The position numbers and the translations under genes were made by a program. The notes under the pieces are model-generated. The model saw only the letters and a list, made by a program, of their open reading frames with translations. It was not told where the DNA came from and made no database searches. Below, in pieces: positions 8,293 to 36,595 of a DNA stretch of 64,000 bases; position 1 is the first letter of the stretch, and every line of letters begins with the position of its first letter. The DNA is from Gemmatimonadota bacterium (GTDB lineage Bacteria > Gemmatimonadota > Gemmatimonadetes > Gemmatimonadales > Gemmatimonadaceae), in the NCBI GenBank assembly GCA_003134685.1, contig PLCA01000003.1, positions 559,123-623,122 on the forward strand, read 5' to 3'.

Positions 8293-10032
8293 TCACTTTG
8301 TTGGTTGCGTGCCGGACGGAATCGCGTAAGCAGCGACCCGGGCGAATTCGACTTCCACCTGACTCAGCTGCTGAAGCAGTTGATTGAACTCGGTGGGCCT
8401 GCGCAGCTCCTCATCCTCGTCCACCCCGGGAAACAGGATCGTGCTCGGCTGCGCAAAAGCGATGACGTTGGCGGGATCGAGACCACGAATCCGGGCGTTT
8501 TCCCCGCGGAATTGCAGGATCACGCTTTGAAGCCGATCCTGCTTTCCCTGCCACTCGCGGAGCGGATGGGACTCCAGCAGGTGATTGATCCTGCCCGCCT
8601 CGGCCGCGGCCCCACTCATGGAAATGCGCGCACCGCGTGCGTGGTTGAGTGCTTCGCGCTCGAGAATGTTTAGCCTGGCACGAAGAGGTCGCAGCGCGGG
8701 ATGCTCGCCCTGCCTGTCCGTCAGATCTTCCTTTTTGTAGACGAAGCCGAGTGTCATCGCAGCGAGGACGAGTCCGATATTCAGCAACACGATCGCGTTG
8801 TTGATCCGCTGGACGGTTATGGCGTAGGCAGCGTCGTCGAGATGTTGTCGAAGCGTGCGGTTCGCGTCCGTTACGCGTTGCGTGGTGGCCGCGGTTTTAG
8901 CGAGATCGGTGCCTGCAGCCTGCTGGTCCGACAACGCTTGCCCGAGCGACACGCTGTCCGAGTGCACGCGCGACTGCGCGGTCTCGGCGATCTGTGCGCG
9001 CGAGAAATACAGGAACGACAGCACCGACACGATTCCGAGGAGCCCGACGACGAAAACGAACAGGTGTTGGCGGCGGTGAGCGCGTATGGTCGTGGCCGCC
9101 ATCGGTGATTCCTTCGCGCTGAATGCGACGACCGATCGCGCCGAGGAGCCGGTGGTTTTGCCGAGGAGGACGAGGATGACGACGGCGATGAGGGCGACGA
9201 GGAAAGCCTCGAAGTGGAGAAGAATGTCCTGGAGCAGGACCAATGGACCCGCGAGCCAGGTGTGGCTTTCTGCCGCTTCGCCGAGCGTCGAGGCGAGCTG
9301 GACCAGCGTCGAATCCATCGGCAGCAACAACCGGAATACCGGAAAGTTCGCGGTGAACTCCGCGACCGTCAGGATGGCGGCAAAAATCCAGAAGCCGAAA
9401 GAGCTCTTGAAGATGCGATCGTACCCGACTCTCGAGGGATCAGACTCCTTGAATTGCTGGAAGGCCTCGATCTGTGATCGCGTGTTCTTTCGTTCGTTGG
9501 CTGTGGCTTCGAGAGCATTTGACTCTGCGCGCGATTCACCGATCAGCCTATTGAGGGCGGCGCTCCTGGACTGGATCTGGTCCTGCATCTTTGTTCGAAC
9601 GCGCTTCCGCCATTGCCGGAACAGCTCGAGAGCTTTCATCCCGAGTACTTGCTCGGGCTCGAGGACTCCGGCGCGTTCGACATCGTGGCGTGGCAATCCC
9701 TTTTCCGCCCATTCCGCGGCGAGCAGCTTCGCTTCCTGCTCCAGCTGGGCGAGCTCGCGGTTGAACCAGTAGTCGGTCCTTCTGGTTATCGCATAGACCC
9801 CGTTCTCGTCGCCGTCGTCGATCGCGTCGGGATGGGGCTTCGCCCAAAAGGGATTCGGGAGGGACATGTACTTGTCCCAGAAGCGCGCGACTCCTCCGGC
9901 CCACTGGAAGCGGGGAGTGCGTGGGTAATCGCCGTTCAGGGAGAACGCAGAAGAATGGTCGGTTCCATTGCGACCAAAGCGACCACCTTTGACGACATCT
10001 TTAGAAGTCGGGGGGCTGAAAATATTGGCCAT
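8293..10032 (-). CDS. Uncharacterised 4-TM membrane protein with N- and C-terminal coiled coils
   Basis: Four hydrophobic segments (FWIFAAILTVAEFTANF, FLVALIAVVILVLLG, LFVFVVGLLGIVSVLSFLYF, IVLLNIGLVLAAMTLGFVY); stop 10 nt from the vWA gene; start uncertain (10032 or 10122). Confidence 0.8.
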   Translation of the reverse strand: MANIFSPPTSKDVVKGGRFGRNGTDHSSAFSLNGDYPRTPRFQWAGGVARFWDKYMSLPNPFWAKPHPDAIDDGDENGVYAITRRTDYWFNRELAQLEQEAKLLAAEWAEKGLPRHDVERAGVLEPEQVLGMKALELFRQWRKRVRTKMQDQIQSRSAALNRLIGESRAESNALEATANERKNTRSQIEAFQQFKESDPSRVGYDRIFKSSFGFWIFAAILTVAEFTANFPVFRLLLPMDSTLVQLASTLGEAAESHTWLAGPLVLLQDILLHFEAFLVALIAVVILVLLGKTTGSSARSVVAFSAKESPMAATTIRAHRRQHLFVFVVGLLGIVSVLSFLYFSRAQIAETAQSRVHSDSVSLGQALSDQQAAGTDLAKTAATTQRVTDANRTLRQHLDDAAYAITVQRINNAIVLLNIGLVLAAMTLGFVYKKEDLTDRQGEHPALRPLRARLNILEREALNHARGARISMSGAAAEAGRINHLLESHPLREWQGKQDRLQSVILQFRGENARIRGLDPANVIAFAQPSTILFPGVDEDEELRRPTEFNQLLQQLSQVEVEFARVAAYAIPSGTQPTK

Positions 10033-10865: not shown

Positions 10866-11162
10866 TCAATAATGAAAGCGCGCTTGCAAGAAGTTCACAC
10901 GGTCGTCGCTGACCAGATAAACCAGTCGATCTTCGCCTGTGATGCGCCGAGACCAGATATTCGGGCCCATCTGCTTGAGGTGCTCGGGCTTTCCAGTGCC
11001 GGAAAAGGGATCTCGCATCACAGCCTCGATCAGATCAAACACTCGTAGCCCTGTCTTCCGGTTCGTATCAACCCACCAGCGCAGATCCTCGAGGCACTCG
11101 GGTTCGATCACAAGAGAGCGCGGTTTGCGTGAGGAATCGCGCCGGTGACTTGACGGGGTCAT
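10866..11162 (-). CDS. yoeB: Txe/YoeB family mRNase toxin
   Basis: DPFSGTGKPEHLK, WSRRITGEDRLVY and C-terminal RFHY; downstream of a YefM-like gene. Confidence 0.93.
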   Translation of the reverse strand: MTPSSHRRDSSRKPRSLVIEPECLEDLRWWVDTNRKTGLRVFDLIEAVMRDPFSGTGKPEHLKQMGPNIWSRRITGEDRLVYLVSDDRVNFLQARFHY

Positions 11163-11177
11163 TCCGAAGCCAGAGTA

Positions 11178-11462
11178 CTATTTCTCTCCATCCAGCCCCA
11201 GCTCCGCGCGCAGATCTTCGAGCGCGATTGACTTGGTTTGTCCGCGAAGGGCGCGCTGGAGCGCCGTGAGAAGTCTTGCGGCGTTCCTCGGTGATCGCAG
11301 CAGGTGGGCGGTTTCACGAAGACCTTCCAGCTCCTCAGCGGGGAGAATTGCCATCGTTTGATGACCTCGGCGTTCCACTATCACAGGCTCCTGGGAGTCT
11401 TCAACCTTGTCCCAGATCTCCGCCAGATTCTCTCTAAGCTTGCTGTACGACGTGGTACCCAT
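11178..11462 (-). CDS. yefM: Phd/YefM family antitoxin
   Basis: SYSKLRENLA..EPVIVER..ETAHLLRSPRNAARL, typical of YefM. Confidence 0.93.
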   Translation of the reverse strand: MGTTSYSKLRENLAEIWDKVEDSQEPVIVERRGHQTMAILPAEELEGLRETAHLLRSPRNAARLLTALQRALRGQTKSIALEDLRAELGLDGEK

Positions 11463-15506: not shown

Positions 15507-17612
15507 GTGAAACCCAACATCAAGCTTGGCCATATCGCAATCGTTTTGTGCGCTGCAATCGCACCGATAGTGCTTGCCGCACAGCAGAGTTCGGCGGATC
15601 CGTTCATCTGGCTCGAGGACGTCGACAGCAAGAGATCGATGGATTGGGTCAACGCCCACAACGCGTCGACTGTGGCCGAGCTGAGCGCTTTGCCGATCTA
15701 TCAGTCGATCTACGATCGCACGAAGGCGATCCTCGACTCGAAGGACAGGATCGCGTATCCGCGCATTGTCGGCGACATGCTTTACAACTTCTGGCAGGAC
15801 GCCGATCACGAGCGAGGGATCTGGCGGCGCACGAGCTGGAGCGATTACACTGGCGGCAATCCGAAGTGGGTGACTGTGCTCGACGTAGACGCCCTCGCCA
15901 AAGCGGAGGGCGTGACCTGGTCGTGGGGCGGCGCCGATTGCTTCGATCCCGAGGAGCGGTTCTGCATGGTGTCGCTCTCGCGCGGCGGGTCGGATGCGAG
16001 CGAATCCCGCGAGTTCGATCTTAAGACGGGTCAGTTCGTAAAAGATGGCTTCCGGTTGCCGGAGGCAAAGAAGTCACTGGCTTGGGTTGATGCTAACAAT
16101 CTCCTTGTTGGCACGGACTACGGGCCGGGGTCGATGACCACTTCCGGCTACGCGCGCGTGGTCAAGCTCTGGAAACGCGGGACACCTCTGTCCTCTGCTA
16201 CGACGGTGTACGAAGCGCCCGCCGACCATATGGGAGCGTTTGTCGGATCAAGCGAAGCGGGCGACCGCCGCTACATCGAGGTCGACGATCAGAAGACTTT
16301 CTACGAGGGTACGAAGTCCCTGTTCCGGGATGGCCGCCTGGTGAAGCTGGATATTCCGGCGGATGCGGATCTGTTCCTGGTGCGGGATCAGATGGTCGTG
16401 TACGTGCGCGACCCGTGGCAGGTTGGCGGGAAAACATGGGGCACGGGGTCGCTCGTTGCGACGCCGCTCGATGACTTTCTCGCCGGGAAGAGCGACCTGA
16501 AGCTGGTGATGCAGCCCGGGCCTCGCGAGAGCGTCAACGGAATCGGGGCGACGCACGACCACCTGCTGATCAACGTGCTCAACAACGTACGCGGCGAGCT
16601 GCGGCGGTATCGCTACCAGAACGGCGCCTGGTCGGCGGAGAAGGTACCGGCGCCCGACCTCGGCGCCATTGGCGTGGTCGCGACCTCGCCGCGGTCGAAT
16701 CGTTTCTTCTTCACTTACACGAACTTCATCCAACCGACGACGCTCTACCTCGCGAGCGAGGACGGAAAAGTTTCCGAGGTGAAGCGACTGCCGGCGCAAT
16801 TCGACGCGAAGGACCTGACCGTTGAGCAGATGGAAGCGATGTCGAAAGACGGAACGAAGATCCCCTATTTTATCGTTCATCGTGAAGGCATGAAGCACGA
16901 TGGGAATAATCCCACGCTGCTGTACGCATATGGCGGGTTCGAGTCGTCGCAGACGCCGTCGTACAGCGCGAACGTGGGCGCGAACTGGCTCGAGCGCGGC
17001 GGGACTTATGTGCTCGCGAACATTCGCGGTGGCGGAGAGTTCGGTCCGGCGTGGCATCGCGCGGGTCTCAAGGAGAATCGCCAGCGCATCTATGACGACT
17101 TTGCAGCCGTGAGCGAGGCGCTGATAAGCCAGCGGATAACATCACCGGAGCATCTGGGGATCGAGGGCGGGAGCAACGGCGGGTTGCTGGTGGGCGTTGC
17201 GTTTACGGAGAGGCCGGAGCTGTACAAGGCGGTGGTGATCCAGTCGCCGCTGCTCGACATGCAGCGGTATAGTCATCTGCTGGCGGGGGCGAGCTGGATG
17301 GCGGAGTACGGGGATCCGGACAAGCCGGATGAGTGGGCTTACATCTCGAAATATTCGCCGTATCAGAATCTTCGGGCCGGTACGAAGTATCCCAAGGTGA
17401 TGTTCACGACCACTACGCGCGACGATCGGGTGCATCCTGCGCATGCGCGGAAGATGGCCGCGAAAATGGAGTCGATGGGGCTACCGTTTTACTACTTCGA
17501 GAATACCGAGGGCGGGCATGGGGCGGGGGTAACGAACGAGCAGAGGGCGAAGAGCATCGCGCTTACTTACGCCTATCTGTGGCAACAGCTGGGTGCCGTT
17601 CGGGGAATGTGA
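15507..17612 (+). CDS. Secreted prolyl oligopeptidase (S9A)
   Basis: Signal peptide, DPFIWLED, GGSNGG (Ser), DDRVHP (Asp), EGGHG (His). Confidence 0.95.
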   Translation: MKPNIKLGHIAIVLCAAIAPIVLAAQQSSADPFIWLEDVDSKRSMDWVNAHNASTVAELSALPIYQSIYDRTKAILDSKDRIAYPRIVGDMLYNFWQDADHERGIWRRTSWSDYTGGNPKWVTVLDVDALAKAEGVTWSWGGADCFDPEERFCMVSLSRGGSDASESREFDLKTGQFVKDGFRLPEAKKSLAWVDANNLLVGTDYGPGSMTTSGYARVVKLWKRGTPLSSATTVYEAPADHMGAFVGSSEAGDRRYIEVDDQKTFYEGTKSLFRDGRLVKLDIPADADLFLVRDQMVVYVRDPWQVGGKTWGTGSLVATPLDDFLAGKSDLKLVMQPGPRESVNGIGATHDHLLINVLNNVRGELRRYRYQNGAWSAEKVPAPDLGAIGVVATSPRSNRFFFTYTNFIQPTTLYLASEDGKVSEVKRLPAQFDAKDLTVEQMEAMSKDGTKIPYFIVHREGMKHDGNNPTLLYAYGGFESSQTPSYSANVGANWLERGGTYVLANIRGGGEFGPAWHRAGLKENRQRIYDDFAAVSEALISQRITSPEHLGIEGGSNGGLLVGVAFTERPELYKAVVIQSPLLDMQRYSHLLAGASWMAEYGDPDKPDEWAYISKYSPYQNLRAGTKYPKVMFTTTTRDDRVHPAHARKMAAKMESMGLPFYYFENTEGGHGAGVTNEQRAKSIALTYAYLWQQLGAVRGM

Positions 17613-17631
17613 CGACGATGTCCACCAAGCA

Positions 17632-18312
17632 GTGACCACTTCGGAATTCCGGAAGCTCGACGAATCGAAGATCGTCGAGTCCCTCACGGCGTTGAGGGAT
17701 CGGATCGAGAATCAGTTTCCGGATTCTGGTTTGGGGAGGGTGGCGGACGAATTGATCGCGGTCGCTGGCGAAGTGGCCGAGTGCGCGGAGTATTTGAGCG
17801 AGACCAACTGGCCGATACGCGTCTTCGCGGGATTGCTGATCGCCGGAATGATCCTGGTGCTTTACCTGGCCGGTCCGCGCGTGGAGCTGCCCGAGGGAGC
17901 ACACAAGTTCTCGGACATTCAGTCGATTGCGGCGGTGTTCAACATCGCGGCGGTGTCAGGTGTCGCGGTGTTGTTCCTGCTGCGCCTCGAGACCAACCTG
18001 AAGCGGAGGCGGGCGCACGGAGTGCTGCACGAGCTGCGAAGTCTCGCCCACGTCGTGGACATGCATCAGTTGGCGAAGGATCCGGCGGGAAGGAGGTTGC
18101 CGGAGCCGGAGATAACTGAGAGTGCGAAGGGAGCGATGAGCCCGCCGTCGCTCGGGCGGTATCTCGATTATTGCACTGATTTACTTTCGCTGACGGGGAA
18201 GTTGTCGGCGTTGTTGGTGCAGGGATTCAAGGACGCGGTTGTGTTGAGCGAAGTGAACGAGATCGAGGCGCTTACGAGTGCCCTTTCGGGGAGGATTTGG
18301 CAAAAGATTTAG
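17632..18312 (+). CDS. Uncharacterised 2-TM membrane protein (copy 2), slightly truncated by a premature TAG
   Basis: Paralog of 11669..12391; TAG at 18310 stands where copy 1 has CAA, and homology continues to 18351. Confidence 0.75.
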   Translation: MTTSEFRKLDESKIVESLTALRDRIENQFPDSGLGRVADELIAVAGEVAECAEYLSETNWPIRVFAGLLIAGMILVLYLAGPRVELPEGAHKFSDIQSIAAVFNIAAVSGVAVLFLLRLETNLKRRRAHGVLHELRSLAHVVDMHQLAKDPAGRRLPEPEITESAKGAMSPPSLGRYLDYCTDLLSLTGKLSALLVQGFKDAVVLSEVNEIEALTSALSGRIWQKI

Positions 18313-18380
18313 CTGTTGGAGCGGGCGTTCGATGCCACTACTGCGCGATAGGTTGCACAGTTCGCCATGAGGCGAGATCA

Positions 18381-18641
18381 ATGAAACACAAAACGGCCAC
18401 CAAACACGGCTACCTAGCATTTCTCTCATGTTCCGCGATCCTCCCCGCGGCGCTGACCGCGCGGCAGGCCGCGACCGATCCGTTCATCTGGCTCGAGGAT
18501 GTCGATGGCACGAGATCGATGGACTGGGTCAACGCGCACAACGCGTCGAGGGTGGTGGTAACCAACGAGCAGAGCGCGAAGAGTCTGGCTCTCACGTATG
18601 CTTATTTGTGGCGGCGACTCGGCGGCAGTCCGGGCCTGTGA
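18381..18641 (+). pseudogene. Internally deleted prolyl oligopeptidase (signal peptide plus first and last helices only)
   Basis: DPFIWLEDVD..RSMDWVNAHNAS fused in frame to VTNEQ.AKS.ALTYAYLW, the two ends of 15507..17612. Confidence 0.8.
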
Positions 18642-18711: not shown

Positions 18712-19116
18712 GTGAAGTCGGTCGAGTTTGCCTTGCCACTCCGACCCGTGTCGCTACAGGCAAAGAATCGCGCGAACCTGCAGGCGTGGAAATCGCTCGT
18801 CGGAGTTGTTGCGCGCATGGCTGGCGCAGGTCCTCCCCTCACGAAGGGCAAAGTCCACCTAACGATAGTCTTTCGGTGCTATGAGCGGGCCCCCATAGAC
18901 GTAGATAACATCATCAAGCCGATACAGGATGCGCTGAGAAACATCGTTTACAAGAACGACGTGATTGTAACCGACGTTCAAAGTCACAGGCGCTACTTGA
19001 ACGAGGCCGTAGATCTTACTTATCTCCCAAAGAGTCTTATCGAGCTAGTCGTCAGCAACGACGAAGGGATCTATGTGCGCGCGAGCAATTCCAAACAATT
19101 GGGCTTCTTTCTGTGA
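18712..19116 (+). CDS. RusA family endonuclease
   Basis: DVDNIIKPIQDAL..IVYKND matches the RusA DxDNxxKxxxDxL catalytic motif. Confidence 0.8.
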   Translation: MKSVEFALPLRPVSLQAKNRANLQAWKSLVGVVARMAGAGPPLTKGKVHLTIVFRCYERAPIDVDNIIKPIQDALRNIVYKNDVIVTDVQSHRRYLNEAVDLTYLPKSLIELVVSNDEGIYVRASNSKQLGFFL

Positions 19117-19799
19117 GCGATCCGCGCGGCGGGGAGGAGCAAAATGCGACACAACGCGTGGCTGACCTCCTGGCTAATGAAGGATTCAAAGTGTTCATTA
19201 ATCCGACTGAGGGAGCTATTCCATTCGACTTAGCGGGTTACCGTCCCGATATCCTTGCGACCCGCGAAGATGAGAGGTTGATCGTCGAGGTGAAACGATC
19301 AGAAAAGGGCACGTCTGTTGACCAGTATGTTGAGGTAGCCCGACTGGTGCGCGAACACCCGGGTTGGAGGTTTCTTCTAATACCCTCGGATACTGTTGAA
19401 GAAGACGGCACGATTGAGGGAAAAGGTGTCCCCGATTGGTCTGCTCTTGTTGAACAGTCGCGGGTGGCCGGGGGGCTGATTTCTAACCAACTGTACGCGG
19501 CGAGTTTTCTGGCAGCATGGGCGGGAGTGGAGGGCACATTGAGACGAATCGCACAAGACCAGGCGATACCCATCGAAGTGTTTTCTGTGCGGCCGCTCAT
19601 CAAGCATTTGTACTCTTTTGGGATCCTGTCGATCATCCAATTTCAGGAATTAGAGGCGCTCGAGCCCGTTCGCAACGAAGTTGCGCATGGCTTTGTTGTT
19701 CCCGACATCGCTGGGCCAGCCCTCCGTTTGTACCAATTGTTCGTGCAGCTACTGGAACTTCGCAGTCGGTCTGGACCCGTGACTGAGGGTCCGCCTTAG
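19113..19799 (+). CDS. PD-(D/E)xK (REase_AHJR-like) nuclease fused to a HEPN-like domain
   Basis: GYRPDILA...LIVEVK; AWAGVEGTLR helix and RNEVAH (RxxxxH); GTGA overlap with the RusA gene. Confidence 0.7.
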   Translation: MSDPRGGEEQNATQRVADLLANEGFKVFINPTEGAIPFDLAGYRPDILATREDERLIVEVKRSEKGTSVDQYVEVARLVREHPGWRFLLIPSDTVEEDGTIEGKGVPDWSALVEQSRVAGGLISNQLYAASFLAAWAGVEGTLRRIAQDQAIPIEVFSVRPLIKHLYSFGILSIIQFQELEALEPVRNEVAHGFVVPDIAGPALRLYQLFVQLLELRSRSGPVTEGPP

Positions 19800-19950
19800 C
19801 TGCCGTTTGGGGTCGTTCGCGATAAATTCGGGGGCGCCGAAGTGAACTTGAGATGATAGAAAATCGACAGTCGGTGAAATAAAATCGACATTGTGGGCTG
19901 CATTTGACCGCCTAGCGTAGTGAACACGCAGGTTTAGCCAGGGAGGACAA

Positions 19951-20121
19951 ATGTCGAAAGTGGCGCCTTTCCATACGAATACTCCAGAGTATCCGCCAAC
20001 GCATCGCGAGGCTTATCACGACAAGGATACGTGCCCAGACGGCAGGCGCATAAAGCCTGAACATCGCCTGCAAGGGACGGGAAACAAGAAGCACTGCTTA
20101 GAGTGCGACAAGGTTAGTTAA
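19951..20121 (+). CDS. 56-aa small His/Cys-containing protein
   Basis: GGGAGG Shine-Dalgarno; MSKVAPFHT...YHDKDTCPDG..I...QGTGNKKHCLEC; below the ORF-track cutoff. Confidence 0.7.
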   Translation: MSKVAPFHTNTPEYPPTHREAYHDKDTCPDGRRIKPEHRLQGTGNKKHCLECDKVS

Positions 20122-20794: not shown

Positions 20795-23281
20795 TTACCG
20801 AGAATATCGAGGCTTCTCTGAGTATTTCTCGATAAAAAGCGATGCCGTCAAGCTATAATGTGTGAGAAGGCTGCCAGCGACCTCATGGGTCGGTGGCCAC
20901 TGGTTGGCGAGGGCCTTCGCGAAGCTCACAACGTCACGTTTCAGATCAGTCAGGGAATTCGCCGTAATAACTCTCATCGAGCTGTGAGGGGAACTGGCGC
21001 GCTCAACCACGTTCGTCGGATGAATCATAACGGCAACCGGTTTACAGCTGGCATCATAGTGTCGGTCGAACCAATTCATCGACCCAGTTAGTTGGTTGAC
21101 ATCGCCCTTATTTATGGTGTCGCCGACCACACCGTTCTTGCATTCAACCACTAGATAACGAAGAGCACCCAGACTCCAGAGAACATCGGGGCCGCTTCCA
21201 TACTCCGATTCCGGCCTTTGACTTGAAAAGCCAATGTGCCTCGCGAGCTGACTAATCCCGAGTTCGAAAGCCGGAGCGGTTTCAGGCTTGAAAATCAGTT
21301 GATCCAAGAGGCCGTAGAGACCGACAAGAAGGTGATTCCCGCTGGGATATTCCCGCACGAGAAACTCGACAACCGATGCTCCTTGGTCTTTATCGACACT
21401 TCGTAAACGCAGATATTCGATTCCGGCAAGCGGCCGCGTGACAAACCTATTTTCTGCTGCCGCGGATTTCAAAATGAGCTGCGATTCAACCGGATCGAGA
21501 AAGTGAACGTAACGCGCGAGCTGTGCGCGTAACCACCCCTTCACGCGCACATCGGACGTCTCATTCACTGTCTTTTGCATTCGTGCTGTGGCGTCTTTAA
21601 AGTCTCGACGACGCGCGGCGTTGAAGGCACTCCGCTGGGCGAGAGCCGTAGCACTAACATTGCCGATCGAGGAGTATTTCACCTGAACGAGCGCTCCCCT
21701 GCTGGCGTCGACCCAACCTCGATCCCGTTTAAGCACCTGAGAAATTACCCCGCGCAGGTTCTTCAGAGACTTTCCGCGAAGTTCTGCGGCAACTTTCTGT
21801 GAGAGGTCAAATTGAGCTCTCGTAGCTGGAGTAAGCATGTCGAGCGCGCCTGTCGCGTAGAGCTGCCGGGTCAGCGATCTTCCGGTGAGCAGAATTACGC
21901 AGCGATCTATGTTAGACCGCACACCGCGCCCCATACCTTGCTCTATTCGCTGAATCATGAAAGCAGTTTGGTCGGCACTTCCGGCCAACGCTGCTTGATC
22001 TATTCTATCAAGTTTAGTTCTTACGTCAGGCAAGCCGTCCAAAACAAGAACCCGGCACGCATCGTCTGGAAGGTCAATCCCGTCGTATTTGTTCAAGATT
22101 ACAGTTAGGCCTACGAGGCCCGCCTTGAGTTTGGCGATCCCCTCCCCTAGCCCCTTAGCGTCGAGCACTTGCGCGGCGTGAGCAGACCATAGCTCGGCTC
22201 TTGCCCGCGATGGTACAATGACGACGACATTGTACTGCTCGGCCAACTTTGCCGCAAAGGATCGGAGTGCACCGTCGTCGATTTCGGGGTTGAGTTCCTG
22301 TGGGATGAGGATAAGGCGGTCGCCGACATCGTCTGCACGCGAAGGGGTAATGGGAGCTTGGGCAGCTTTTGGGTCTACATCGAAGTGCGTTACGAGAACG
22401 CTGTCATCAGCCAGTGTCGCCGTCATGAAAACCCTTCGCTCCGCATTTGCGAAACTCGGGATGGCTTCGATCGGCATGCATCTCGGAGAGATCTCGACAA
22501 CACCCCCACCGAAGACGCACTCGCATAAGGGCAGCACGTCTTCCAGTAGCGGCCACGAAAACTCCAACTGACTGCTCTTTCGTTCGCCGTGCAGAATGGC
22601 AGCGACCTGGTCGTTCTTGTCAATCCATGCCCAATATGGGACTAGAAGCTCCTTAGCCGGGTCCTCGGCTTCAACATCTAACAGGAGTGTCGGAGATTGT
22701 CCTCTAAGATCTTCCCGGAAAAGAGAAAGTAGGCCTTTGTAAGCTTTCGAGGTCGAGTCCGCTCGCAAAGTGAACTGCCCTTCGGTGGTGGAAAGGCATG
22801 CGTGAGCATCGTCGACAACGATCGCGCCGAGAGGAATCTTCGACCCCTCAGTACCTACCCCAAAGACAGATTTCCCATTTACCAGTTTGTAGATGTTAGC
22901 AATGAGTACTGCCTCGCCGCGCATGAACCGCGGATCCTCCGCGTTATTCGCGACCGCGATGCCGAGCGCTTCGGCCTCGGCAACGACTTGTCGCGTAAGG
23001 TACGGATCGGGAGTGATATAAACGGCGGGTTTGATACCTTCGTTCAAAAGGCTTTTCAGAATTACAAGGCCGACGACAGTCTTGCCGCCTCCCGTGTTCA
23101 TCTTAATTACTACATCTCGCTCGCCTCGTCTCGCGTCCCATCGATCCCAAACTTCAGCCTGCACATCCCGCGGATACTGATATCGCGATCCTTCCTTTGG
23201 CAATACTGTGAACAGCTCTCTCGGATGAAGAACAGTTTTTGATGCGCCTGACTTACCAATCTTGGTAAAATCGAGTGCCAC
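20795..23281 (-). CDS. SF2 (DinG-like) helicase with C-terminal PD-(D/E)xK nuclease; Hna-like anti-phage protein
   Basis: KMNTGGGKT, DDAH, MTATL, DGIDLPDDACR, EQGMGRGVRS; C-terminal GPDVLW...VVECK; AAGGAGG RBS. Confidence 0.8.
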   Translation of the reverse strand: MALDFTKIGKSGASKTVLHPRELFTVLPKEGSRYQYPRDVQAEVWDRWDARRGERDVVIKMNTGGGKTVVGLVILKSLLNEGIKPAVYITPDPYLTRQVVAEAEALGIAVANNAEDPRFMRGEAVLIANIYKLVNGKSVFGVGTEGSKIPLGAIVVDDAHACLSTTEGQFTLRADSTSKAYKGLLSLFREDLRGQSPTLLLDVEAEDPAKELLVPYWAWIDKNDQVAAILHGERKSSQLEFSWPLLEDVLPLCECVFGGGVVEISPRCMPIEAIPSFANAERRVFMTATLADDSVLVTHFDVDPKAAQAPITPSRADDVGDRLILIPQELNPEIDDGALRSFAAKLAEQYNVVVIVPSRARAELWSAHAAQVLDAKGLGEGIAKLKAGLVGLTVILNKYDGIDLPDDACRVLVLDGLPDVRTKLDRIDQAALAGSADQTAFMIQRIEQGMGRGVRSNIDRCVILLTGRSLTRQLYATGALDMLTPATRAQFDLSQKVAAELRGKSLKNLRGVISQVLKRDRGWVDASRGALVQVKYSSIGNVSATALAQRSAFNAARRRDFKDATARMQKTVNETSDVRVKGWLRAQLARYVHFLDPVESQLILKSAAAENRFVTRPLAGIEYLRLRSVDKDQGASVVEFLVREYPSGNHLLVGLYGLLDQLIFKPETAPAFELGISQLARHIGFSSQRPESEYGSGPDVLWSLGALRYLVVECKNGVVGDTINKGDVNQLTGSMNWFDRHYDASCKPVAVMIHPTNVVERASSPHSSMRVITANSLTDLKRDVVSFAKALANQWPPTHEVAGSLLTHYSLTASLFIEKYSEKPRYSR

Positions 23282-23558: not shown

Positions 23559-24489
23559 CTATCCGCCAATACGCTCATACGCTTTCTGTATGAATGGCTT
23601 GGCTACTTCCAAATCTTCCAGCGTCTTCAGCGTGATTTCGAGATCGCCAGTCCCGAAGTGACCAATCTTTGTTACATCGCGAGACATACCCGGCGGGCCC
23701 GGTACAACTTTGGGATCAAGCTTGAGAAACAGAAGCACTTTTTTCTGTTGCGTCTCAACTGAAGCGATGTTCTGCGTCGTCCGATATGCGACATAGTATT
23801 TCTTCGGAGCCTCCTCCACGCTGGGGTCAAGGCCCAACATGAACTCCTGCAATGCCAGAACGAGTGATCGGATATGCGCAGACTTGCCCTCAATATGCTT
23901 TTTGAAAGTCCAATTCGCGGTGGCCCTAGTTGCGGCTGCTTTCTTCCCAGCTTCAACCATGATGGGGTTTTTGCCCGCGTCCGGCGGAGACTGCGGAACC
24001 CCTTTTTGAAGGACCTCTTCCAGATACAGCGAACCGTTAGCAAATAAGCGGTAGGTCCAAAGCTCGATGTTGGCGCCCATCATTTGGACAGCGAGTAAAT
24101 CGTATCGCTTGTAGTTCGGGGCAAGGCATATAACCCTCGTATCTGACCAGTCAATCGAGACCGCCGGACCAAGCGCTTTTTGCACAGCAATTTCGAAGTC
24201 GCCGTGATGATCATGAAGCCACGAAAGATAGAACAGACTCTGGTTAACGAGCTCTGAGGACGCGACCCGTTTGTACTCTATGATGACGGGATTGCCGTCC
24301 TCAGACAGTGCAAGGGTATCGATACGCCCCTGCGTGCTGCGAACCCGTGGAGAACTCCGTTGCAATAAACCTGAAATTGAAAACGGTCCCCAGATTCCGC
24401 TCAATGAGACTCTGGAGTGTGCGTTCGTCAGGGAAGTCTGACTGTGCGACCGAAGAGAACTCGTTCTTTGTGACGTGAAAGAGCGGCAT
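23559..24489 (-). pseudogene. NucS/RecB-like endonuclease plus DUF5655 protein (COG3586-like), frameshifted
   Basis: MPLFHV...ATEFSTGSQHAG continues as RIDTLALSEDGNPVIIEYK only if one G is removed from the run at 24327-24330. Confidence 0.75.
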
Positions 24490-25443: not shown

Positions 25444-28122
25444 TTACGCCACAGCAGCGGTGATCGCCCCGAAGTTTTCATTTGTTGGCATCACAAAGAG
25501 ACATGCTCCATTGCTCCTAGATTGCCATACTTTCCCTACCGCCAATTTTTCCTCAGCGCCAGCTAACAGGTGACCGCCCTTATATTCGACGACGAGAACT
25601 CGCCCATCTTCGAGCTGGACTACGAAGTCAGGATAGAACCACGCTTTTGAAGTTTGCATTCGAAACGAAGTATCCCGCTGAGGAAGATTTCTCACCCAGA
25701 ATCGCACCTCAGGCATTTCATCGATGAACCGCGCGCATTTGAATTCCTCGCGAAGGCTGCCGTCCGCGGTGTGTTCGGCAAGATCACCTGGCCTGTTCCC
25801 AAAATAGTGCTTCCTGAACACGAAATCGCCACCATACCACTCGCTCGGTTCGTACCCCATCTTGCGAAAATTCACAGCGCACTCGACAGTAACGGTGAGT
25901 GGTGAATCCGGCAACAGAAACAGCTGAAACGCCGTTCGCTGTTCCGACTCACGGTAAAATCGAATACGTCTTTCCACCTCATCTCGTAAACGGAACCGGT
26001 CTAGAGCGATTGTTCCCACGTCCTGGATTCCGAAACGAGCCATGAGTCCTCGAATAACTTGACGCAAGAACTCGGCGGACTCTGCAATCGGGATGTCTTG
26101 GTGGTCGAGGCGTTGATCCAGCCAAGCGACGAGAGTCTCTATCGTCCAGTCATGCTCGTGGCCGAGGGCGAAGGCGTGTTGATGGAGCATTCCAACGAAG
26201 TCTGTCTCCTGTCTCTCTGGGAGCACTTCCATTTGCATCCCTCCGCCCCTTCCTCCCACATCGATCGTCCCGATTTGCCCAACAGGTCTCCGGACCGGGT
26301 CGTAGCTATCGGGCAGCCCAGCGTCCTTGCTACTCAATCGCCACGGGTGTTCAAGCAGTAAAGTGCTTTCGAACTCGAAAACCTCGTTGGCCTCGCGGAC
26401 GGCGAGACGCGGAACCACAAAGTCCACTCCGCGCTCATAGGGTGAAGGAGCTCTCGGAGCCCCAGTTCCCCCGAAAGCCCTCTCGGTCTCCCGAACCAAC
26501 TGAGCTAGCGCTGAGACCTGGCGTCTCGACTCGTATGAAATGAAAGCGCCTAGTAGCCGTGTTTCGTCGCTGTCCGTTAGGGGGACGAGAACCGTTACTT
26601 CACCCGTAGAGACGTCTATTCTGGCCTTACCTTCCAGAGCGGAGGACTGCGCAATTGCCACACTCGAATCAATTTCCGCCGGGTCGACACGCATCGTTTG
26701 AGGCTGCGAGCCAAGCGGGAGTGTTGTTTGTGCGACAGGAAAAATAATTCGCTCTGCTTCGGCCGAGGTAAATCCATTACCAATGAGGGCAGCGCGCAAA
26801 TCGGCCAGGATTTCTGTAATTGACGGTGATACTGCTAGCGCATACGCGCAATTGAGATCCGGGTGCTGCTTAGCTGTCGCTCCCGGCAGTCGAAGGATGC
26901 GACCAATAATTTGCTCTAGAGCTGTCGCCGAGCGTGTCTCGCGGAGATTGCAAAGCACGTAAGCAAAAGGACAGTCCCATCCTTCGCGTAGCTTCACGAC
27001 GGTAATGATGATTCGCACTCCGCACGCAGCTCCCGAAATGTCTCCCAAGTCTTTCAACTCATCTAATGAACCGACTGAAATCTTGATTTGGTCGAACGGT
27101 ATACCGAACTCCCTGACGAGTTGCTCGCGCAGAGGCTCACACGCGTCTACCCGCTCGGCTTGGATCAAGAGAATCGGCCGCAAATATTCGCCTGTTCGCT
27201 GGCCTTCTGATATCGCTAGTCGCTCGAGATCGGACCGGAGGGCAATACTTTCTGCGAGGAGTTGAGGCCGCTGGCTCGGATGACGCGTCACAACTCGAAG
27301 CGGAAGCTTAATCATATCTGCGACCTTCAATTCCGCCGCTGAAACCCGATGAAGTACGTTGGAAGGCGTTTCGCCTTGCAGAACCGGGGTCGCAGTGAAC
27401 TCGATGACGCACGCGGGAAGGATGTTCCCGAGTGTTGCGAATGACAGTTCCGTTCGCGCATTATGCGCCTCGTCGACGATTACGATTGGTCGCCGAATGC
27501 GGAGCATGTTTACGAGTGAGGGGACGGGTCGTGCATCGGGCCCGAGGAGAAGATCGTGGATACGGACGGCTGGGACATGAAGCAAGTGTTCCAAGAACGC
27601 GCTGTTTTGTTCATACACTTTCCGTCCGGCCGTGTCTTCGACTCTGAAAGATTGGATTGTCGCCACGATTACAACCGTCTGCGCCTCTACAGCTGCGAGC
27701 GACAGCTGCAGTGCTTCCTCGACGGTAATTACATCCACCGCCCCACACGACATTTCGAGAGCGCGTCGATATGGATGGCTTGGGTCCCGGAGCGCGTTGA
27801 CGGTTTGATCTAAAATCGTATTACTTGGAACTAGCCAGAGAATCACTGCGCGCTCGGCGTGTATTAGATGAGTCATCGCCAATCCAGAGGCGTAACAGGC
27901 CAAGAGAGTTTTGCCACCGCCGGTAGGAACACGCAGGCAGACGTATGGCATGTGGTCCGCAAGTCCTTCTACTTGCACTGGGTGATAAGAGCTGAGTGAG
28001 CCGCCGTTGCTTTCCTGTATTCTCTGATACGCAAGGTTTGGTTGTCCCTCCTGCGAACAGAGAATGAAGAATTCGCGGAGCGTATCTAGAACTCGGACTT
28101 GGTAGTCTTTTAGCGTGATCAC
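25444..28122 (-). CDS. res: Type III restriction enzyme, Res subunit
   Basis: VPTGGGKT, DEAH, LREGWDCP, EQIIGRILR, C-terminal YPDF...VVEYKG; GTGA overlap with mod. Confidence 0.9.
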   Translation of the reverse strand: MITLKDYQVRVLDTLREFFILCSQEGQPNLAYQRIQESNGGSLSSYHPVQVEGLADHMPYVCLRVPTGGGKTLLACYASGLAMTHLIHAERAVILWLVPSNTILDQTVNALRDPSHPYRRALEMSCGAVDVITVEEALQLSLAAVEAQTVVIVATIQSFRVEDTAGRKVYEQNSAFLEHLLHVPAVRIHDLLLGPDARPVPSLVNMLRIRRPIVIVDEAHNARTELSFATLGNILPACVIEFTATPVLQGETPSNVLHRVSAAELKVADMIKLPLRVVTRHPSQRPQLLAESIALRSDLERLAISEGQRTGEYLRPILLIQAERVDACEPLREQLVREFGIPFDQIKISVGSLDELKDLGDISGAACGVRIIITVVKLREGWDCPFAYVLCNLRETRSATALEQIIGRILRLPGATAKQHPDLNCAYALAVSPSITEILADLRAALIGNGFTSAEAERIIFPVAQTTLPLGSQPQTMRVDPAEIDSSVAIAQSSALEGKARIDVSTGEVTVLVPLTDSDETRLLGAFISYESRRQVSALAQLVRETERAFGGTGAPRAPSPYERGVDFVVPRLAVREANEVFEFESTLLLEHPWRLSSKDAGLPDSYDPVRRPVGQIGTIDVGGRGGGMQMEVLPERQETDFVGMLHQHAFALGHEHDWTIETLVAWLDQRLDHQDIPIAESAEFLRQVIRGLMARFGIQDVGTIALDRFRLRDEVERRIRFYRESEQRTAFQLFLLPDSPLTVTVECAVNFRKMGYEPSEWYGGDFVFRKHYFGNRPGDLAEHTADGSLREEFKCARFIDEMPEVRFWVRNLPQRDTSFRMQTSKAWFYPDFVVQLEDGRVLVVEYKGGHLLAGAEEKLAVGKVWQSRSNGACLFVMPTNENFGAITAAVA

Positions 28123-29834
28123 CGGCTGCGAACGGCCCAAGGAGTTTGTCGAACCGTAACGCGCTCCGATCGCAAACGATCAGGTCCAAGTCGATGGCCG
28201 GAGCAGTAAATCACTTTAGGACCGTCAAAGGGGGGAAGCTCGGCCAGAACCCCGCGCGTCAGGACATTGCCTCCGCCGACACTCCTGTCACCAAGGATAC
28301 CGTTGTAGAGGAGATAGAGGCCGATTCCACGGTAGTCGCCCAAGAATGGAGAGGAGAGAACACGAGCGGGAGGAAGCGGCTCCCCCGTCTCGGTGAAGTA
28401 AACGTGGCGAGCGAGGTCAGAAAAACTTACTGTCGCTCTTAACTGGCCAGACTCGTCTGTGAGCCGCTCCCCCAGCTCACAGAATCGAAACCCTCCGCCG
28501 AGACCTTCCACGAAATTGCCGCTAGCATTCGTGTACCCGTCCGAAACACGTCGGACCCGTTCGGCCGTAATCGTCCTGGCAATCGAGGGCTTCATTTCGA
28601 CAAGAATGAATCGTCTTCGCTGACCGTCGGCATGATTCAGCTTGAGGACCGCGTGACCGGTGGTCCCGGACCCTGCAAATGAATCAAGAACTAAATCGTT
28701 GCCAGTCGTGGTGAAGCTAAGAAGCTCTTCAATGAGCGCGGTTGGTTTGGGAAAGTCAAACGGGCGGTTGTCGCCCGGGAAAATCTGCTTGATTTCGTTC
28801 GTTCCGATTCTCCCGTCGAGCTCAAAGAGGCTAGACAGCTTCGCGCGATAATCTGTCACGTACACCTTCAATTCCACGAGCTTGGACTCATCCTCTCCAA
28901 ATAGAATTTGGCCTTCGTCTAGAAGGCGCCTCATAGTTTCCTCCGGGAATCGATAGCCCATCAATGGCTGAGTACAAGGCCGCCTGGTCACGGGATGGAT
29001 CACATCGTAGCGGTAGCCCTCCTTCCCCGGGTTATGGACGCTCTGACTTCCCGTATAGATGCCGCCCTTATCGATGTATTTGTATCTATCAAAAGGCCAG
29101 AGTTGAGTCTTGTTTTTCCTAAACCACACGCTGTAGGCGGCCTGCAACTCAAGCGCATCATCGTACTTTTCTACAAACTCGGCGCCGACTTGAAGCAGCT
29201 TGTCCTTCACTGCTAAGTTCGTCGCCTTCCACTCGGGCGCTAAATCAGTCTTGTTGTTTGCATAGCAGAGCACGTATTCGTGCTCCGCCGCAATTTGGGT
29301 GGGATTGTTATCGGTTACGTTTTTCCAAATAATTGTTCCGACACGATTCCTCACACCGAAGATTTCATCAAACAGAAGGCGCAAGCTGGCGATTTCTATC
29401 TCGTCTATGCTGGCGAAGACTACGCCGTCCTCACGCAAAAACTGCCGGAGCAATGACAGGCGGGGGTACATCATGCAAAGCCACTTGTCGTGCCTAGAGA
29501 GATCCTCGACCTCTGGGCCCACAACGCGGCCGAGCCATTCGCGAATCTCCGGACTGTCGACATTGTCGCTGAAAGTCCAACCCGCGCGTTTCCCAGTCTC
29601 ATCACGCTCGTCCGTACCCGTATTGTATGGCGGATCGATGTAAATGCACTTCACTTGTCCGGCGTAGTATGGGAGCAGCGCCTTCAGGGCAAGTAGGTTG
29701 TCCCCTTGAATGATTAGGTTTCCATCTCCCGAATCAGTCGATCCAAGAGCTGGAATGTCCTTTAGCAAATGAAACGGAACTTTCTGGTGGTGAGTGGCTA
29801 CCGCCTCCTTGCCAATCCAATCGAGTGTCGGCAA
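28119..29834 (-). CDS. mod: Type III R-M N6-adenine methyltransferase, Mod subunit
   Basis: MPTLDWIGK start (TTG), IIQGDNL.AL, IYIDPPYNTG, FPKP, DSFAGSGTT. Confidence 0.92.
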   Translation of the reverse strand: MPTLDWIGKEAVATHHQKVPFHLLKDIPALGSTDSGDGNLIIQGDNLLALKALLPYYAGQVKCIYIDPPYNTGTDERDETGKRAGWTFSDNVDSPEIREWLGRVVGPEVEDLSRHDKWLCMMYPRLSLLRQFLREDGVVFASIDEIEIASLRLLFDEIFGVRNRVGTIIWKNVTDNNPTQIAAEHEYVLCYANNKTDLAPEWKATNLAVKDKLLQVGAEFVEKYDDALELQAAYSVWFRKNKTQLWPFDRYKYIDKGGIYTGSQSVHNPGKEGYRYDVIHPVTRRPCTQPLMGYRFPEETMRRLLDEGQILFGEDESKLVELKVYVTDYRAKLSSLFELDGRIGTNEIKQIFPGDNRPFDFPKPTALIEELLSFTTTGNDLVLDSFAGSGTTGHAVLKLNHADGQRRRFILVEMKPSIARTITAERVRRVSDGYTNASGNFVEGLGGGFRFCELGERLTDESGQLRATVSFSDLARHVYFTETGEPLPPARVLSSPFLGDYRGIGLYLLYNGILGDRSVGGGNVLTRGVLAELPPFDGPKVIYCSGHRLGPDRLRSERVTVRQTPWAVRSR

Positions 29835-30091
29835 TAACGCCTCAAGAATTTGGTGTAGTGAGCAAAAGAGTTGCTCATTGGCTAGGTGCGCGAGAGCCAG
29901 ACCGGCAATTAGGCCGAACGCAACGGGACCCGTCAAGTGCAGAACAATTCATCCTAAAAAGAAGTCTAAACGGTCGATCCTTCTCGGGTGCCTCACCGAT
30001 GGGAGAGATCGGACATTCCGAGCCGGCCCTCGAGATGCGGCCAGCCCCATCCAGAAAATTGGCAAACCTTCCTGACAGCGACCGGAAAGCA

Positions 30092-30124: not shown

Positions 30125-30135
30125 GGTTACATCAG

Positions 30136-30208
30136 TTGCCCCTCCTAGGCTCGAACTAGGACTCTTCTGATCCAGAATCAGACGTGTTGCCAGTTACACC
30201 AAGGGGCA
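30136..30208 (-). tRNA. tRNA-Gln(CUG), CCA not encoded
   Basis: Cloverleaf: acceptor TGCCCCT/AGGGGCA, D stem GTGT/ACAC, anticodon stem TCTGA/TCAGA with loop TTCTGGA, T arm CCTAG-TTCGAGC-CTAGG. Confidence 0.97.
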
Positions 30209-32967: not shown

Positions 32968-33067
32968 TTAGTTCCATCTAAAGGAGCTACGGGCGCGCCA
33001 GTATTCCGCAGGGTTGATCGAAACCGAACGAAGCTTCTCCTCCAGTTCGGGATCGTAGGCAAGTTCC
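32968..33067 (-). pseudogene. Displaced 3' end of an aldo/keto reductase allele
   Basis: 89 of 100 nt identical to 35627..35726; reads ELAYDPELEEKLRSVSINPAEYWRARSSFRWN*. Confidence 0.8.
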
Positions 33068-33086
33068 CGCGGCTGGTTCCATAGCC

Positions 33087-35626: not shown

Positions 35627-36595
35627 TCAGTTCCATCTAAACGAGCTACGAGCCCGCCAGTATTCGGTAGAGTCGATAGAAACCGAACGAAGCTTCTCAT
35701 CCAGTTCGGGATCGTAGGCGAGTTCCAGCGCGCCGACATTCGACTGGACCTGCCCGACCGTCGCTGCCCCGGTCAATACAATATCGGCCCATGGACGCGC
35801 GAGCGCGGCAGCTAGCGCAAGCGTTTCCACGGTCAAGCCCCGACTCTTGGCCAGCTCGCGAATTCGCGTGACGATCGGCGAGAAGAACGCGTCGTCGTCT
35901 CGATTTGCCTGAGTCAATCGCCCGTTGGCCAGAGACTCCTTCACGACGACCTTCATCCCCGCGGCGTGCGCTTCCTCGAGCGCTGACTCCGCCCCCCGCT
36001 CGAGAAGATTCCAGGTCGCCTGTACTGAATCGAATACCCGTTCGCCATCGCGACGCACTTCGAGAGACCGCCGAATGGCGACGTCCTGCCCCGCCCCGCT
36101 GACAGTCAGCCCCGCACTGATGCCTCGCTCACGCAATCGTGCAATCGCATCGATAAGCGCGTCGTCTTCCAGTGTCTTGCTCTCGGCGGTCACCGAGTGG
36201 ATCTGATAGAGCGAGAGATAAGGACCGAGTCGCTCGATGCTCTCATGGAGCTGGCGAAGGTAGGCCGCAAGCGAATGCTCCTTGACCTCGTGCTGCGTGG
36301 CGCTCGTCGACCAGCCGGCCGTGTAGGTATATCCCCACTTCGACGCTACCGAAATCTCACCGGGCTCGATCGCGCGCTTGCGCAGCCACGACGCCAGGAA
36401 ATCTTCCGCCCGGCCGTATGAGCGCGCCGCATCGATGTAGCGGGTTCCCGCCTCGAACGCCGCATCGAGAACATCGTGCGCGTGCAACTCCATGGTCGGC
36501 AGGTCGTAATGTCCGCCCAGATCGCTCGCATGATTCAACGTCACGTATCCGGGCCGGCCAAGTGCGGCAAGCCCGAGCCCAAGTCGCGCAGTCAT
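35627..36595 (-). CDS. Aldo/keto reductase
   Basis: LGLG, YIDAARSYG, SKWG, LYQIHS, QATWNLL motifs. Confidence 0.9.
   Translation of the reverse strand: MTARLGLGLAALGRPGYVTLNHASDLGGHYDLPTMELHAHDVLDAAFEAGTRYIDAARSYGRAEDFLASWLRKRAIEPGEISVASKWGYTYTAGWSTSATQHEVKEHSLAAYLRQLHESIERLGPYLSLYQIHSVTAESKTLEDDALIDAIARLRERGISAGLTVSGAGQDVAIRRSLEVRRDGERVFDSVQATWNLLERGAESALEEAHAAGMKVVVKESLANGRLTQANRDDDAFFSPIVTRIRELAKSRGLTVETLALAAALARPWADIVLTGAATVGQVQSNVGALELAYDPELDEKLRSVSIDSTEYWRARSSFRWN

Follow-up and report, generated by a model that had tools for sequence, protein, structure and literature searches.

Within the window analysed here, a stretch of 64,000 nucleotides from a Gemmatimonadota contig, two short genes on the plus strand overlap at their junction and encode a RusA-like protein and a fusion of a nuclease domain with a HEPN domain. 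Gene 1 (18712..19116; GTG start, 134 amino acids) and gene 2 (19113..19799; GTG start, 228 amino acids) lie exactly where a preliminary description, made from the letters of this DNA, had placed them, and they share the tetranucleotide GTGA at 19113..19116 on the plus strand, in which the GTG start codon of gene 2 lies over the TGA stop codon of gene 1, an arrangement of translational coupling. The ATG at 19144, which follows a GGAGGAG, was considered as the start of gene 2 and rejected because it is out of frame and the homologues favour the overlapping GTG. The G+C content falls from about 61% to 52-58% across approximately 18.5-35 kb of the window, with the pair at the left edge of this lower-GC island, so that both the overlap and the reported position at the border of an A/T-richer island agree with what was first described.

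Gene 1 encodes a predicted structure-specific nuclease. It scores 37.3 bits (E=5e-9; cut-off 22.8) against the Pfam family RusA (PF05866), and its AlphaFold model, built from 62 homologues with a predicted local distance difference test (pLDDT) of 85.5 and a predicted template-modelling score (pTM) of 0.81, retrieved Escherichia coli RusA structures (1q8r, 2h8c and 2h8e) as all of the top seven Foldseek matches in the PDB, at template-modelling (TM) scores of 0.70-0.81 and probability 1.00. The catalytic residues of E. coli RusA are D70, D72, D91 and K76. An hhalign alignment to 1q8r, the sequence of which was verified as identical to the PDB chain, pairs D63, D65, K69, D73 and D83 of gene 1 with D70, D72, K76, D80 and D91 of RusA, consistently with the motif though at an hhalign probability of only 3.5%. 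Because the RusA subfamily profile did not reach 1q8r when searched against PDB sequences, these catalytic equivalences rest on hhalign together with the fold match. The catalytic core aligned in this way, D63-V-D65-N-I-I-K69-P-I-Q-D73 ... D82-D83, occupies 18898..18960 on the plus strand. D63, D65, N66, K69, D73, D83, D88, H92 and R94 are invariant in the subfamily alignment of 62 sequences, and the catalytic residue pattern is unbroken in 78 of 84 homologous loci. The subfamily proteins are 132-136 amino acids long and carry a conserved additional C-terminal strand and helix (ECVYVRV...L.YL). Judged by sequence and model, gene 1 is a divergent RusA subfamily member, a predicted endonuclease with its catalytic residues intact, and the RusA catalytic motif first noticed in it is borne out by the Pfam score, the Foldseek matches and the hhalign equivalences alike.

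The N-terminal part of gene 2 resembles a Holliday-junction resolvase of another fold. Residues 9-97 (19137..19403, plus strand), containing IPFD39, P45-D46 and E59-V-K61, match the Pfam family AHJR-like restriction endonuclease (REase; PF18743) with 58.4 bits (E=7e-16; cut-off 26.1), while the score against Pfam Hjc (PF01870), 20.8 bits, falls just under the cut-off of 21.1. A gene 2 family profile searched against the PDB found the Hjc protein ST1444 at E=1.3e-3, with its PD...ExK residues aligned to P45-D46...E59-x-K61, which bears out the PD..EVK nuclease motif of the preliminary description. In the AlphaFold model (pLDDT 81.8), an N-terminal domain with the alpha-beta-beta-beta-alpha-beta order of a restriction-endonuclease-like fold is followed by five helices, and the first domain matches the archaeal Hjc structures 4tkd, 1ob8 and 2wiw in Foldseek at probability 1.00 and TM-scores of 0.41-0.46.

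The C-terminal, all-helical domain (approximately residues 105-220; 19425..19772, plus strand), with its helices modelled at 109-124, 128-149, 159-168, 174-191 and 200-220 and with conserved W136 and R144, resembles HepT-like HEPN proteins. Its Foldseek matches are 2hsb (TM 0.71; root-mean-square deviation 2.7 over 117 columns), 1o3u (0.67) and HepT 6m6w_H (0.66), followed by 5yep, 7ae6 and Csm6', at E-values kept weak (0.06-0.2) by the two-domain query. A HEPN fold, the lack of which had been named as a ground for abandoning the first interpretation, is thus supported by structure prediction. The motif R187-N-E-V-A-H192 stands at 19671..19688 on the plus strand and is followed by G-F; the family consensus at this site is RNRLxHGY, and the window protein has RNEVAHGF. 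The window protein gave no match to the Pfam HEPN clan at E<=1, and plasmid homologues pass the HepT-like (PF01934) cut-off of 23.5 with 24.0-25.8 bits, one of them being labelled 'HepT-like ribonuclease domain-containing protein' at NCBI. Among 150 diverse representatives of the gene 2 family, Pfam recognised AHJR-like in 149, Hjc in 62 and HepT-like in 22, and the further HEPN-clan matches were RiboL-PSP (14), DUF4145 (10) and HEPN (4), which makes about 50 of the 150 with a HEPN-clan match in all. D46, E59, W85, W136, R144, R187 and H192 are each at least 90% conserved over the same representatives, so that the RNEVAH motif read as HEPN in the first place holds for R187 and H192 across the family. 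This family comprises 2,332 clusters at 50% identity (E<=1e-3; 1,504 at E<=1e-10), almost all of 215-235 amino acids. The family profiles and the structural model accordingly predict that gene 2 joins an Hjc-like PD-(D/E)xK domain with a HEPN domain of HepT-like type in which the RNEVAH motif is intact.

Homologous loci are referred to below by L numbers where they have to be told apart. The gene 2 copies of Nostoc are longer, with 290-440 amino acids (L011:6390-7649; also L014, L021, L023 and L086), with C-terminal extensions that vary greatly and consist in part of repeats, such as a repeated LSPEDLAAFRAWFAEFDAA; a Pfam search of these extensions gave no convincing match. A DUF29 gene usually lies just upstream of RusA in the Nostoc loci.

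Together the two genes make up a self-contained and horizontally mobile module, which recurs in more than 130 independent loci, far beyond what chance would produce. A scan for the RusA subfamily in one genome per species, covering 185,579 species genomes, gave 231 confirmed matches, and a gene 2 homologue lies directly downstream of RusA in all 80 loci that were fetched. The reciprocal scan of metagenomes with gene 2 gave 69 loci, 62 of them with sufficient upstream sequence, and RusA adjoins gene 2 in 54 of these, most of the other eight holding remnants of RusA. The in-frame ATGA or GTGA overlap is kept in 122 of 132 homologous pairs, and the pairwise identities of the two proteins correlate with r=0.95 overall and 0.70 among distant pairs, with RusA as the slower-evolving partner (mean identity 0.64, against 0.47 for gene 2). 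Both genes are under purifying selection, with ratios of nonsynonymous to synonymous substitution rates (dN/dS) of 0.18-0.23 for RusA and 0.17-0.36 for gene 2. The arrangement of the window recurs on 24 public contigs, including PLCW01000014 of the peat-metagenome metagenome-assembled genome (MAG) GCA_003134915.1, and the layout of RusA followed by the fusion gene is also found on the plasmids pTi_CFBP2177 of Agrobacterium, pT136b of Rhizobium and p4 of Azospirillum, where gene 2 retains 23-25% identity. The co-occurrence on which the preliminary description had made its proposal depend is therefore observed in genomes and metagenomes.

RusA is classically phage- or prophage-borne, and the DNA around the window copy was acquired horizontally, both of which would suit an incidental adjacency, namely that a RusA derived from a cryptic prophage came to stand beside an unrelated REase-HEPN gene. 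The overlapping pair, however, was found in more than 130 loci and in at least 71 independent contexts; neither protein matched any of 50,697 phage genomes in a tblastn search, gene 2 was absent from IMG/VR in a pattern scan, and the pair is without flanking phage genes. Chance adjacency or a prophage RusA is ruled out by this massive co-occurrence together with the absence from the phage collections searched, and we regard the explanation as already refuted, its residual probability being close to nil.

Clustering of the flanking open reading frames (ORFs) of 171 loci into 96 synteny groups identified gene 2 (93 groups) and RusA (71 groups) as the only recurrent genes; a conserved third component was not found, every other gene occurring in at most four of the 96 groups. 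A GHKL-type ATPase (HATPase_c_3) of about 650 amino acids stands convergent and downstream of the pair on the Agrobacterium pTi plasmid (L092:4643-6577) and on Rhizobium pT136b (L093:6238-8217). It was considered as a third component and rejected, as it does not recur elsewhere, and it is probably a separate element.

In the window, the pair shares its lower-GC island with genes of defence type, all on the minus strand: a PDC-S28 helicase of 828 amino acids (20795-23281; PADLOC E=0), a PDC-S18/DUF5655 gene (23559-24404) and a type III restriction-modification pair (res 25444-28140; mod 28119-29936). The island ends at a tRNA-Gln(CTG) gene (30135-30208). No integrase was found in it, and a direct repeat of the tRNA-Gln 3' end, sought as a means to delimit the island, was not found either. 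Its left edge, shortly before gene 1, is marked by a remnant second copy of a prolyl-oligopeptidase (S9) gene (18398-18641), which consists of about 158 nucleotides of the 5' end and 92 nucleotides of the 3' end joined by an internal deletion, with 72-73% identity to the intact gene at 15507-17612 (segments 15518-15675 and 17521-17612), and which is still part of an open 114-amino-acid ORF (18297-18641). Between peptidase gene and remnant lies an ORF of 239 amino acids (17593-18312) that has no Pfam or PADLOC match. A scan for promoters and terminators gave counts not over the shuffled expectation and nothing usable upstream of gene 1; a single sigma-70-like promoter match in the region (19857-19885) precedes a cysteine-containing ORF of 56 amino acids directly downstream of the pair (19951-20121), which has no Pfam match, is called as a gene on the related contigs L088 and L090 and is not kept beside the pair elsewhere. 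Further along, a direct repeat of 102 nucleotides with 89% identity occurs at 32970-33071, where it is intergenic, and at 35629-35730, where it overlaps the 3' end of an ORF on the minus strand (35627-36595); the two copies could flank the footprint of an insertion of about 2.6 kb that includes an alpha/beta hydrolase gene.

Beyond the window, the RusA subfamily has a patchy spread over at least eight phyla in approximately 0.1% of the species genomes, and the pair is present in cyanobacteria, proteobacteria, planctomycetes, Chloroflexi, Desulfobacterota and Bacteroidota as well as in the peat MAG of the window. In Vibrio parahaemolyticus (L164, GCA_047252065.1), the pair constitutes a single cassette bounded by attC repeats (9842-9975 and 11053-11186), two cassettes from the integron integrase. 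The surrounding region (L164:7727-20399) is a chromosomal superintegron in which at least 13 cassettes, separated by attC repeats of about 128 nucleotides, come after an IntI-like integrase, and its other cassettes encode acetyltransferases and DUF488 proteins. The Endozoicomonas copy lies in a region dense in toxin-antitoxin (TA) genes (RnlAB, BrnT, HigB and HicAB), the Electronema copy adjoins a pair of HigB and a helix-turn-helix (HTH) gene together with an IS110 element, the Rhizobium plasmid copy adjoins AbiEii/DUF6088, an IS5 element and a restriction endonuclease, and the L008 copy adjoins a HEC-01-like pair of AAA_21 and DUF4276 genes. In one MAG, Beggiatoa sp. SZUA-411, the whole pair is present twice, as divergent copies on separate scaffolds (L054 and L075).

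The mobility, the TA-rich or defence-type neighbourhoods and the patchy distribution favour a module of biological conflict. We tentatively propose, at a confidence slightly short of even, that the pair is a cooperative two-nuclease conflict module, either TA-like or acting by abortive infection, whose proteins would work jointly rather than one merely neutralising the other.

The cooperative element of this proposal has to be weighed against a classic addictive TA system, wherein the HEPN fusion or RusA would be a constitutive toxin that its partner binds and neutralises, and the pair would stabilise plasmids, integron arrays and islands. The small size and translational coupling of the two genes would suit such a system, as would the resemblance of the HEPN domain to HepT, the toxin of type VII systems, and the pair occurs on plasmids, as a two-gene integron cassette and in TA-dense regions. 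The frequencies of loss, with RusA lost in 8 of 62 loci and gene 2 in 3-4 of 80, point in the same direction, and so does gene 2 in that it evolves faster and sheds catalytic residues under continued selection, as an antitoxin might. Neither protein, however, contains a recognised domain of antitoxin type, be it minimal nucleotidyltransferase (MNT), HTH or ribbon-helix-helix, and orphans occur both ways. A gene 2 with all its catalytic residues outlives RusA in L005/L006 and L098/L099, where RusA is internally deleted and a DUF6888/DUF6887 pair is inserted, in L135, where HicAB stands in place of RusA, in L112, where a C-terminal remnant of RusA is all that is left, and in L101, which has no trace of RusA. 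Conversely, a catalytically intact RusA stands beside a broken gene 2 in L080, L046 and L085, the last two of which are possible indel errors of nanopore assemblies. Because orphan copies of either partner persist in nature, the simple TA reading is weakened, and we consider an addictive TA system unlikely.

Further forms of decay accompany these orphans. HicAB has also replaced RusA in L104, where gene 2 is truncated at the N terminus to 186 amino acids; an in-frame deletion in L100 and L102 joins the first 17 RusA codons to gene 2; and RusA has been hit by nonsense or insertion mutations in L063 and L038. TA-type cassettes, placed directly before gene 2, overwrite RusA in loci of the Pseudanabaena type (L098:5517-5908, L135:156-598 and L104:1070-1467), and in such loci the RusA site acts as a hot spot at which TA modules insert. 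Read from these decay patterns, neither protein would be a constitutively lethal toxin that depends strictly on its partner, while RusA would be the constant catalytic element and gene 2 would retain a selected role even where its catalysis appears to have lapsed.

Several observations weigh against the cooperative conflict module. Most of the 119 proteins that flank 32 dereplicated loci are housekeeping or metabolic, and only two match ATPases of defence type; the non-prophage defence neighbourhood originally described is thus real in the window and present at a few other loci (L008, the Rhizobium plasmid and Endozoicomonas), but is not general. The pair occupies a fixed syntenic position in Nostoc, Microcoleus/Tychonema and Pseudanabaena, and is apparently inherited vertically in these cyanobacteria (Nostoc, Microcoleus and Pseudanabaena). 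There, the catalytic residues of gene 2 are often replaced while RusA is intact, with D46N or K61N in Microcoleus and D39Y/N and R187W/S in Nostoc, and the catalysis of gene 2 is therefore dispensable in those lineages. The position of the pTi_CFBP2177 copy beside ligD, imuA and a Y-family polymerase hints at DNA repair. PADLOC-DB v2.0.0 contains no model for either protein and gave no meaningful match for the window's gene 1 or gene 2, as the preliminary description had expected, and 150 members of the gene 2 family gave sporadic weak matches at the level of Cas4 or Csm6 domains. Three peat metatranscriptome runs contained no matching contigs and are uninformative on expression. The orphan copies and the housekeeping flanks together argue against a simple defence-island gene as well as against a classic addictive TA system.

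Some of the same observations could fit an accessory module of recombination and repair, in which a RusA resolvase and a junction-binding partner would act on Holliday junctions or stalled forks, the HEPN domain then having a structural or regulatory role. The folds of both proteins are of resolvase type, the pair is inherited stably and in synteny among housekeeping genes of three cyanobacterial genera, purifying selection acts on it, repair genes adjoin the pTi_CFBP2177 copy, and some lineages dispense with the catalytic residues of gene 2. Yet a repair function would sit poorly with a patchy spread suggestive of horizontal gene transfer in about 0.1% of species genomes, with an integron cassette and TA or defence neighbourhoods, and with the frequent pseudogenisation or replacement of either gene. 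The Rx4H RNase motif, moreover, is at least 90% conserved across the family, and we know of no junction-resolution pathway that uses such a motif; an Aeromonas genome with the pair still retains ruvC, 7 kb away. A repair module accordingly seems improbable to us, though it would amount, if true, to a new bacterial resolvase complex.

The domain identities, the conserved active sites, the strict coupling and joint inheritance of the genes, their mobility and the variety of their contexts are shown by the data above. For the cooperative conflict module, a possible mechanism can be outlined, and here we infer complex formation, substrates, trigger, toxicity and phage phenotype alike. The overlapping genes would couple a structure-specific DNA nuclease, in fixed proportion, to a second junction-type domain and a HEPN RNase. 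RusA, the Hjc-like domain or both may bind branched DNA or cleave it, be it junctions, forks or the intermediates of an invader's recombination-dependent replication, whereupon a dimeric HEPN site could cleave RNA and stop growth. In its most specific form, close to what the preliminary description conjectured, the module would be an immune or abortive system that senses the shape of DNA and not its sequence, with branched intermediates of phages or plasmids switching on the fused HEPN RNase; this version we hold to be doubtful, and if it were true, it would be the first defence system that is built on a Holliday-junction resolvase and triggered by DNA branches. As a unit of merely 1.1 kb with three predicted active sites, carried on Ti and symbiosis plasmids too, the pair would, as a defence or addiction module, link the recognition of DNA branches to the cleavage of RNA. 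No described system is known to have a Holliday-junction resolvase as an obligate partner, though TA and anti-phage systems rely widely on HEPN RNases and PD-(D/E)xK nucleases as effectors.

Among known systems, type VII HepT/MntA can be set beside the pair. HepT is the toxin of these systems, its signature is Rx4HxY, and the tyrosine of this signature is the site of AMPylation. Both the pair and HepT/MntA have a HepT-like Rx4H HEPN domain, with structural matches to 6m6w, 5yep and 7ae6, and both consist of two overlapping genes of which the second encodes the HEPN protein. However, the upstream partner in the pair is a RusA nuclease rather than an MNT, and neutralisation by AMPylation is therefore impossible; the HEPN domain of the pair is fused to an Hjc-like nuclease domain, and in the window protein a phenylalanine replaces the AMPylated tyrosine. 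A variant of HepT/MntA was ruled out, as there is no MNT gene and no nucleotidyltransferase gene recurs in the 96 contexts.

The constituent folds also have known counterparts. Gene 1 shares its fold, the acidic triad and the lysine with RusA of E. coli DLP12 and lambdoid phages (1q8r and 2h8c), whereas it is divergent, without a tblastn match in phages, not located in prophages, and followed by the fusion gene in 80 of 80 loci. The N-terminal domain of gene 2 shares the PD...ExK core with archaeal Hjc and Hje; unlike Hjc, it is bacterial and fused to HEPN, its helix-1 glutamate is not conserved, and it has a family-specific IPFD motif. The two folds of gene 2 are those of the growth-arrest effectors in the abortive defence of Csm6/Csx1 (HEPN) and Can2/Card1 (PD-(D/E)xK), from which the pair differs in having no CARF or other recognisable sensor domain. 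More broadly, no effector folds are commoner in known abortive-infection and defence systems than HEPN and PD-(D/E)xK (PMC3710099; PMC13092281). Lactococcal AbiD1, itself a HEPN protein, has a functional link to a phage RuvC-like resolvase (PMC3710099), while in the present pair the resolvase is encoded by the module itself and not by the phage.

Among the closest known relatives is the fusion of AHJR-like REase and HEPN noted in 2013 in Table 1 of the HEPN census (Anantharaman et al., PMC3710099), which has the same architecture as gene 2, namely PF18743 joined to HEPN-M/DUF86, that is, the HepT-like PF01934. To this extent, the module is not as undescribed as the preliminary description supposed. 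The census gives the fusion without a function or a gene neighbourhood, and RusA has no occurrence in it (PMC3710099). Full-text literature searches that combined RusA with HEPN, with defence or with TA, or that looked for AHJR-like, yielded no description of the pair, and recent papers on integron cassettes and DefensePredictor do not describe it, so that it is the coupling to RusA which stands as undescribed. Compared with the fusion of 2013, the new element is the obligate upstream RusA partner.

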